Below are positions 3,088 through 3,210 of a stretch of 4,245 bases of DNA, in pieces. Source of the DNA: a virus (lineage: Duplodnaviria > Heunggongvirae > Uroviricota > Caudoviricetes); IMG/VR virus record IMGVR_UViG_2671181188_000006. One strand, 5' to 3'. The position numbers were made by a program, and so were the translations under genes. Positions within the stretch are counted from its first letter, which is position 1; each line of letters opens with the position of its first letter. Under the pieces are notes generated by a model. That model was not told the origin of the DNA and ran no database searches. It was given only the letters and a program-made list of their open reading frames with translations.

Positions 3088-3162
3088 AGAGAAAAGCCCC
3101 AGTTAACATTACGCGTCCTGCAAGACGCTTAACATTAATCTGAGGCCCAATCTATGCTTCAC
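3088..3162 (-). ncRNA. Candidate Sok-like antisense small RNA (about 70 nt) opposite the leader of the hok remnant
   Basis: On the minus strand there is a -35 TTGCCT (+ coords 3192-3197), a 17-bp spacer and a -10 TAACCT (3169-3174). The predicted transcript ends in a 7-bp stem (+ coords 3140-3146 with 3096-3102, one G-U pair) followed by UUUUCUCU. The length and position resemble Sok of hok/sok loci. This is structure-based only. Confidence 0.25.
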
Positions 3163-3210
3163 AAACGTAGGTTAGCCTCTTACGCGCCGAAAGGCAAGGA
3201 GAAGCAGGTT

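Follow-up and report, generated by a model that had tools for sequence, protein, structure and literature searches.

A Probable Sok Antisense RNA Gene in a Prophage hok/sok Module With a Broken Toxin Gene

Introduction

Does the DNA opposite the leader of a broken hok gene encode a Sok antisense RNA, and to which kind of hok locus does it belong? The question is raised by positions 3088–3197 of a 4,245-nt stretch of viral DNA, which is analyzed here at its full length and referred to as the window. The locus belongs to an O157:H7-type lambdoid prophage and is found in its nin region, flanked by the replication gene P on one side and the DUF968, RusA and Q genes on the other. From the sequence alone, an original prediction had placed a Sok-like antisense RNA opposite the hok leader. 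This assignment is upheld by a match to the Rfam family RF01794 (114.9 bits) and by 66/71 identity to sokW, and the flagged stretch is very probably the Sok antisense RNA gene of a prophage hok/sok module whose partner toxin is broken (Table 1).

The element is already known, being a textbook Sok gene that is almost identical to the characterized sokW. With sokW characterized and the toxin of the window copy dead, the locus adds no new insight into how hok/sok works, and the variability of the Sok tail among prophage copies is the only thread with possible further yield. Of 5426 complete E. coli genomes, 508 carry the exact Sok allele, and the RefSeq rows shown for these matches list no feature under it. 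Conservation and diversity were assessed across 82 relatives, which are distinct loci from IMG/VR collected by a pattern scan. The -35 hexamer of the sok promoter was imposed by the search pattern and positions 3042–3054 formed part of the filter for relatives, and the invariance of either carries no weight.

Table 1. Features of the hok/sok locus, in window coordinates; minus-strand promoter and RNA elements are given first.
Feature	Position	Strand	Basis or remark
sok promoter -35 TTGCCT	3197–3192	minus	Sequence; overlaps the hok Shine-Dalgarno on the opposite strand
sok promoter -10 TAACCT	3174–3169	minus	Sequence; present in 80/82 relatives
Probable Sok antisense RNA, 71 nt	3162–3092	minus	Homology to annotated sokW; ends transferred from sokW
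Sok single-stranded 5' tail GUGAAGCAUAGAUUGG, 14–16 nt	3147–3162	minus	Unpaired in MFE structure
Sok hairpin, 22 bp, loop UGCA	3146–3096	minus	Fold; 16 nt longer than Rfam consensus hairpin
U tract UUUUCUCU, intrinsic terminator tail	3095–3088	minus	Sequence; invariant in 82 relatives
Putative hok mRNA promoter -10 TAGAAT	3030–3035	plus	Location with respect to Rfam model position 1; 6 nt before mRNA 5' end
hok mRNA 5' end (GGGUGCUUGAGGC..., tac)	3042–3060	plus	Rfam RF01794 model position 1 at 3042
hok mRNA 5' hairpin, 8-bp stem CUGUCUGC C.../...GGCAGACAG	3055–3088	plus	Rfam structure
mok Shine-Dalgarno GAGG (3142–3145), AUG (3154–3156), stem-loop (3142–3180)	3142–3156	plus	ATG invariant, 82/82
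hok Shine-Dalgarno AAGGAG (3196–3201), start codon (3211–3213)	3196–3213	plus	Sequence; K-12 hokD identical from there onward
Broken hok ORF, frameshifted after 16 native codons (MKQQKAMLIALIVICL|KTNLRSKRPGGGEIPRHR)	3211–3315	plus	ORF list; alignment to intact locus
Deletion junction, 90 bp (hok nt 50–139) replaced by AA	3260–3261		blastn, window vs. intact O157:H7 prophage locus (L001)
fbi, 3' fold-back partner of mRNA 5' end	3321–3340	plus	RNAduplex
hok mRNA intrinsic terminator AACCCGC-TTCG-GCGGGTT (3347–3364) + T run	3347–3374	plus	Terminator scan; identical in K-12 hokD

Family Assignment

The Rfam family RF01794, named "sok," matches the plus strand of the window at 3042–3216 over its full model (positions 1–157), with an E-value of 1.4e-26 and a score of 114.9 bits against the gathering threshold of 59 bits. 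The same model scores 118.3 bits at the control locus hokC/sokC, 113.5 bits in phage 933W, 109.7 bits at hokB/sokB and 87.2 bits in the R1-type parB. Since this plus-strand match extends as far as the hok AUG, the model depicts the leader of the hok mRNA and not Sok itself. The hok-mRNA sense of the match is shared by two further loci, L004 (402–554) and L005 (467–618). A strand check revealed that the curated K-12 genes sokC and sokB lie opposite the strand of their RF01794 matches, and the plus-strand match in the window therefore predicts a Sok RNA on the minus strand. Annotations copied from RF01794 consequently put Sok on the wrong strand and give it a length of 150–175 nt.

One such Rfam "sok" element of 175 nt was reported in E. 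coli EDL933, where 1539 RNA-seq reads document its transcription in the hok sense and its ribosome coverage is 0.42 (PMC5331693). The Shine-Dalgarno context of the EDL933 element, tgaggccca, is identical to window positions 3141–3149, and the window allele shares it with one other common tail allele. For EDL933, these data show expression and translation of a leader that has the same Shine-Dalgarno context; they concern an RNA in the hok/mok sense and are no evidence for Sok.

Rfam Sok matches near prophage sRNA genes are already described in the literature. Weak matches to the families isrK, rsmX and ceN48 in the window fall below threshold, overlap either the 3' end of the hok mRNA or its leader, and were taken as chance. 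The match to isrK, an sRNA of Salmonella prophages, lies at 3287–3368 on the plus strand and spans fbi and the terminator (27 bits against a gathering threshold of 50, E-value 0.005). It is probably a chance match driven by the terminator, the alternative being a common origin of prophage 3' ends.

The sok Promoter

A sigma70-like promoter had been proposed on the minus strand, and its -35 hexamer TTGCCT, 17-bp spacer (ttcggcgcgtaagaggc on the minus strand) and -10 hexamer TAACCT are all present in the sequence where they had been placed, within the first codons of mok. Their resemblance to the consensus is weak, with 4/6 matches in the -35 and 3/6 in the -10 hexamer (7/12 in total). As many as 62 sites in the 4245-nt window have an equal or better match, that is, the hexamers do not stand out above chance. 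Likewise, a consensus scan of positions 2900–3500 for promoters and terminators reported neither on the minus strand, including those of sok itself. Since the hexamers are no better than chance, proof of the sok feature has to come from homology and conservation.

One such comparison is with sokW, in which the heptamer TAGGTTA was changed to CCGGCTC by means of the primer YO-421, yielding a "pro-less" mutant that lost its antitoxin activity (PMC8621323). The mutated heptamer corresponds to window positions 3168–3174 and includes the sok -10 hexamer. The promoter is thus called because the mutated -10 of sokW is identical, i.e., by reference to a tested homologue and not to a consensus. In addition, Rfam alignments place the sok promoter of the window in a position co-linear with the promoters of R1 Sok, sokB, sokC and sokW, its -35 hexamer TTGCCT being aligned with TTGCGC in R1, TTGACC in sokC and TTGCCG in sokB.

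The only promoter-like site found between 2900 and 3500 is located on the plus strand (TTAACA-18-TATGCT, 3129–3158, 9/12 matches). It was rejected, as its -10 hexamer overlaps mok codons that are variable and lacks conservation among the relatives. This site would start a hok transcript that lacks the Sok target, and its occurrence is probably due to chance.

Structure and Strand of the Sok RNA

A transcript of about 70 nt had been anticipated, in good agreement with the 71-nt unit that alignment to sokW suggests. The putative Sok start lies 7 nt downstream of the -10 hexamer, at 3162, and the predicted RNA ends after UUUU at 3092. The hairpin fold has a minimum free energy of -30.7 kcal/mol (z = -4.7 relative to dinucleotide shuffles; about -29 to -31 kcal/mol across folds, with -29.2 kcal/mol for the 71-nt unit). 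The hairpin is composed of three helices of 7, 9 and 6 bp, which are separated by one bulged A and one A.G mismatch. The original prediction of a 7-bp stem enclosing a GCGUC/GACGC hairpin was correct as to the presence of a terminator, but the structure itself is a single 22-bp hairpin.

The 71-nt unit can pair without any mismatch with the hok mRNA leader and spans both the Shine-Dalgarno sequence and the AUG of mok, the 5' tail being antisense to the mok AUG and codons 2 and 3. The leader upstream of the hok ORF is covered as had been proposed, but the initiation region that is targeted is the start of mok and not that of hok. In R1 Sok, the 5' tail acts as the target-recognition segment (PMC1635323), and this role is carried over here to the tail of the window RNA. 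The plus-strand sequence CATTAATCTGAGGCCCAATCTATGCTTCAC in the window is the counterpart of the sokW probe YO-592.

The hok mRNA could use the same bases for a structure of its own, and the strand on which the hairpin is maintained is informative in this respect. Folding of the plus strand yields about -18 to -19 kcal/mol (-18.8 kcal/mol next to the -30.7 kcal/mol of the Sok strand), i.e., the Sok strand is 12 kcal/mol better. Across the 82 relatives, the hairpin pairing is intact in 99.3% of cells on the minus strand vs. 81.8% on the hok strand, because four G.U pairs of the Sok strand become C.A there. This strand bias points to selection on a minus-strand RNA, as far as can be judged from sequence comparison. 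It also weighs against the notion that the region is only a cis-acting leader of the hok mRNA, in which the minus-strand hexamers of this allele are inactive and no Sok is made. Such a leader would be compatible with the chance-level promoter match, and its GAGGC/GCCUC stem could explain the conservation of the shared bases; however, the four G.U pairs are mismatched on the hok strand, and the -10, the -35 and, apart from one substitution, the spacer match those of sokW, whose -10 proved necessary. A leader without Sok is therefore considered highly improbable, and the region is read as a Sok gene in what follows.

A minus-strand ORF at 2906–3109 (67 aa), whose start lies within the Sok hairpin, was rejected as coding, since a 1-nt indel at 3077 breaks its frame in 33 of the 82 relatives.

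The hok mRNA Leader and the Remaining Module

The plus strand carries the other parts of a hok/sok module. Upstream of the mRNA 5' end, each position of the TAGAAT hexamer is kept in 75–82 of the 82 relatives. The 5' hairpin of the hok mRNA displays a compensatory switch of the pair G3056/C3087 to A/T (15 G-C vs. 62 A-T relatives), as well as the substitution C3061T, which keeps the pair on the plus strand only. Its pairing is intact in 99.1% of cells on the plus strand vs. 95.1% on the minus strand in the 82 relatives, a strand bias that mirrors the one of the Sok hairpin. The mok reading frame runs in phase with the hok start at 3211, an arrangement also seen for mokW and mokC. At the other end of the mRNA, fbi is predicted to fold back onto tac in a duplex of 3042–3060 with 3321–3340 (-30.2 kcal/mol, RNAduplex); the role assigned to fbi follows that described for R1 (PMC1635323, figure legend).

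What is observed at this module is its geometry, its complementarity and its predicted structures; the manner in which it might act is drawn from R1 (PMC1635323) and sokW (PMC8621323). By analogy, the unstable Sok would use its 5' tail to bind the hok mRNA at the target stem-loop, once this mRNA has been processed at the 3' end and refolded. The resulting duplex would stop mok translation, and thereby the coupled translation of hok, and would be cleaved by RNase III. Once sok transcription ends, upon loss or induction of the prophage, the stable mRNA would be translated and Hok would depolarize the inner membrane. Because the locus runs in the same direction as the P...Q early operon, we further infer that rightward transcription after induction would oppose the sok promoter and might aid its silencing.

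Comparison With Known hok/sok Systems

The closest characterized relative is sokW of phage 933W and the Sakai prophage Sp5 (GenBank AF125520), whose annotated 71-nt RNA aligns to the minus strand of the window at 3092–3162 (93% identity). Both loci have the same -35 and -10 hexamers, a 22-bp hairpin with the 16-nt extension and the mok-hok frame. Differences comprise one substitution in the promoter spacer and five in the RNA, of which four lie in the 5' tail (GUGAAGCAUAGAUUGG in the window, GUUCAGCAUGGAUUGA in sokW) and one in the hairpin loop. The 3' end past fbi also differs from hokW, and hok is broken in the window. The genomic positions are distinct as well: hokW is encoded on the complementary strand at 58.4–58.8 kb of the 61.7-kb 933W record, adjoining a late ORF of 8.4 kb, whereas the window locus is part of the nin region and points the same way as P...Q. 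The RNA of Sp5 sokW was detected by northern blot (Takada et al., 2021; PMC8621323). In the same study, the "promoter-less" sokW gave no protection against HokW; supplying sokW in trans brought part of the protection back, and both RNase III and Hfq were found to contribute to sokW action. Sp5 hokW acts upon prophage induction and leads to faster phage release (PMC8621323).

R1 Sok of parB resembles the window RNA in having its promoter inside mok, in the succession of 5' tail, hairpin and U tract, in being antisense to the initiation region of mok, and in belonging to RF01794. It differs in length (64 vs. 71 nt), hairpin (about 14 vs. 22 bp) and promoter hexamers (TTGCGC/TATCCT vs. TTGCCT/TAACCT). 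Moreover, R1 is a plasmid and the window a prophage, and their Hok proteins are only 44% identical (PMC8621323).

Comparison with chromosomal sok genes had been suggested as a check, and K-12 sokC and sokB indeed match the window in family, architecture and promoter position, each being a curated ncRNA opposite an Rfam match. In contrast to the window, these loci are chromosomal and encode RNAs of 57–59 nt with shorter hairpins. The chromosomal hokC and hokB loci of K-12 were reported to be inactive in post-segregational killing (preprint 10.1101/2025.08.07.668861). All five Sok RNAs (window, sokW, sokC, sokB and R1) follow one plan of a free tail of 12–14 nt, a hairpin and a U tract, and each of them is about 8–12 kcal/mol stabler than the opposite strand.

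A different picture emerges for hokD (relF) of the relBEF operon in the K-12 Qin prophage. Its toxin CDS and its 3' UTR with the terminator are nearly identical to those of the window, and both loci lie upstream of a DUF968 gene and Q. However, the homology begins only about 12 nt before the hok ATG, and Qin hokD is devoid of sok, the mok start and the 5' leader, because relE sequence replaces them. Upstream of 3199, the window does not align with K-12 relE-hokD and contains a full leader instead. This speaks against a relE 3' end remnant, which had been named as a finding that would refute a sok-like element, and it agrees with the view that the locus is a full hok/sok module and not a relBEF-type hokD: leader, mok, fold-back and terminator are present in the window as a set that is absent in Qin. 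The sister loci are nevertheless named "hokD" by PGAP, a label that treats their toxin like the leaderless K-12 gene.

The Broken Toxin Gene

An intact Hok ORF of about 50 aa with a transmembrane helix and conserved cysteines is absent from the window, whose frameshift products would be 34 and 53 aa long. The full 51-aa protein is encoded by 81 of the 82 relatives, and also by loci that are 100% identical to the window on the flanks of the deletion (HokD). With hok broken, the antitoxin function of Sok cannot operate in cis here, and the locus is best regarded, from its sequence, as a hok/sok member by descent with a disabled toxin.

Window positions 1–3259 are 100% identical to the O157:H7 prophage L001 and positions 3262–4245 are 99.8% identical; other O157:H7 genomes in which hok is intact match both flanks of the junction at 100% identity. 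Searches of 5426 complete E. coli genomes, GTDB representatives, IMG/VR and JGI metagenomes failed to recover the junction itself. Because the flanks are identical to those of intact loci and the junction is private, the lesion is either a very recent private event or an artefact. An artefact of cloning, assembly or curation, for example through selection against a toxic insert, would imply that the source prophage has a working hok/sok. In favor of this explanation are the private junction, the identity of the flanks to many O157:H7 genomes with an intact gene, the AA filler, which is untemplated and without microhomology, and the fact that any hok defect is seen in just one of the 82 relatives. 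On the other hand, the window bears no mark of cloning or editing, and natural private deletions of toxin genes do occur. On balance, an artefact is considered somewhat unlikely.

The suggestion of an antitoxin RNA that outlives its toxin holds insofar as hok is broken; it receives little support otherwise, as there is no sign of persistence and intact loci match the flanks at 100% identity. A related scenario, in which the orphan Sok is retained for a role in trans against the same-allele hok of a phage that enters the cell or already resides in it (anti-addiction or immunity), could draw on the undamaged sok and target next to a dead hok and on the frequency of the exact tail allele in complete E. 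coli genomes, which implies that matching toxins circulate, but it is very improbable given zero substitutions relative to intact loci, which leaves no time for selection on the orphan, and a private deletion with no orphan-sok population among relatives.

Variability of the Sok Tail

Across the 82 relatives, variation is concentrated in the Sok tail and in mok codons 2–5. Nucleotide diversity reaches 0.342 in the tail (3147–3162), as compared to 0.019 in the Sok hairpin and U tract, 0.008 in the sok -10 hexamer, 0.034 at third codon positions of hok, 0.11 in the 3' UTR and 0.16 in the region preceding the hok mRNA 5' end. The hypervariable span extends over 3147–3167, and its part immediately before the Sok start has a diversity of 0.21. 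The tail is thus about 10 times more variable among relatives than the remaining locus. It occurs in 19 alleles, each of which is found on several leader backgrounds and single ones on up to eight; examples of tail alleles are those of the window (GUGAAGCAUAGAUUGG) and of sokW as well as CCATATCTATGCTCTACACACGT and CTCAATCTATGAACGGCAAATCT. In nearly all tail alleles, the mok target hairpin on the plus strand retains a stability of about -13 kcal/mol.

These observations may tentatively be read as a specificity cassette under diversifying selection, formed by the Sok tail and the matching parts of the mok target hairpin, namely its loop and inner stem. Another explanation, which also fits, is that the tail is the sole unconstrained stretch of an otherwise tightly constrained RNA. 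To see whether co-resident copies avoid having a tail allele in common, allele-specific megablast searches with 52-nt queries were run and returned 1.06, 1.16 and 1.08 places per carrying genome; an allele makes up about 5% of all places, so that random assortment predicts about equal multiplicity, and the many clonal O157 genomes do not count as independent.

If the tail were indeed a specificity cassette, the 2–10 hok/sok modules per E. coli genome could operate side by side free of cross-talk. The addiction or lysis timer of each prophage would remain its own, the Sok of another phage could not disarm it, and the orphan Sok of the window would protect against its own allele only. A literature search for cross-talk between prophage hok/sok loci found nothing relevant, and the latest survey of Hok was restricted to coding sequences, leaving Sok and Mok to future work (preprint 10.1101/2025.08.07.668861).

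Neighboring Features

Two small hydrophobic ORFs are located on the plus strand just upstream of hok/sok. The first (2750–2827, 25 aa, MSRPDAFAGVAIAIAFLVYVICRWG) overlaps the stop of the preceding ORF as ATGA and is unannotated in the sister genome, and the second (2863–2967, 34 aa, MSDDISLVMEGALAVIAVVGVYCLVVFLMERLGN) carries the annotation hypothetical. Each resembles a single-pass membrane peptide.

Further upstream on the plus strand (2159–2192), the sequence AGGAG (2159–2163) is followed by a perfect GC-rich hairpin, ACCGCCC-GAAA-GGGCGGT (2164–2181), and by an ORF of 187 aa with its ATG at 2190. The start of this ORF is overlapped as ATGA by a 28-aa ORF at 2107–2193. If folded, the hairpin would place the Shine-Dalgarno sequence about 8 nt from the start of the 187-aa ORF.
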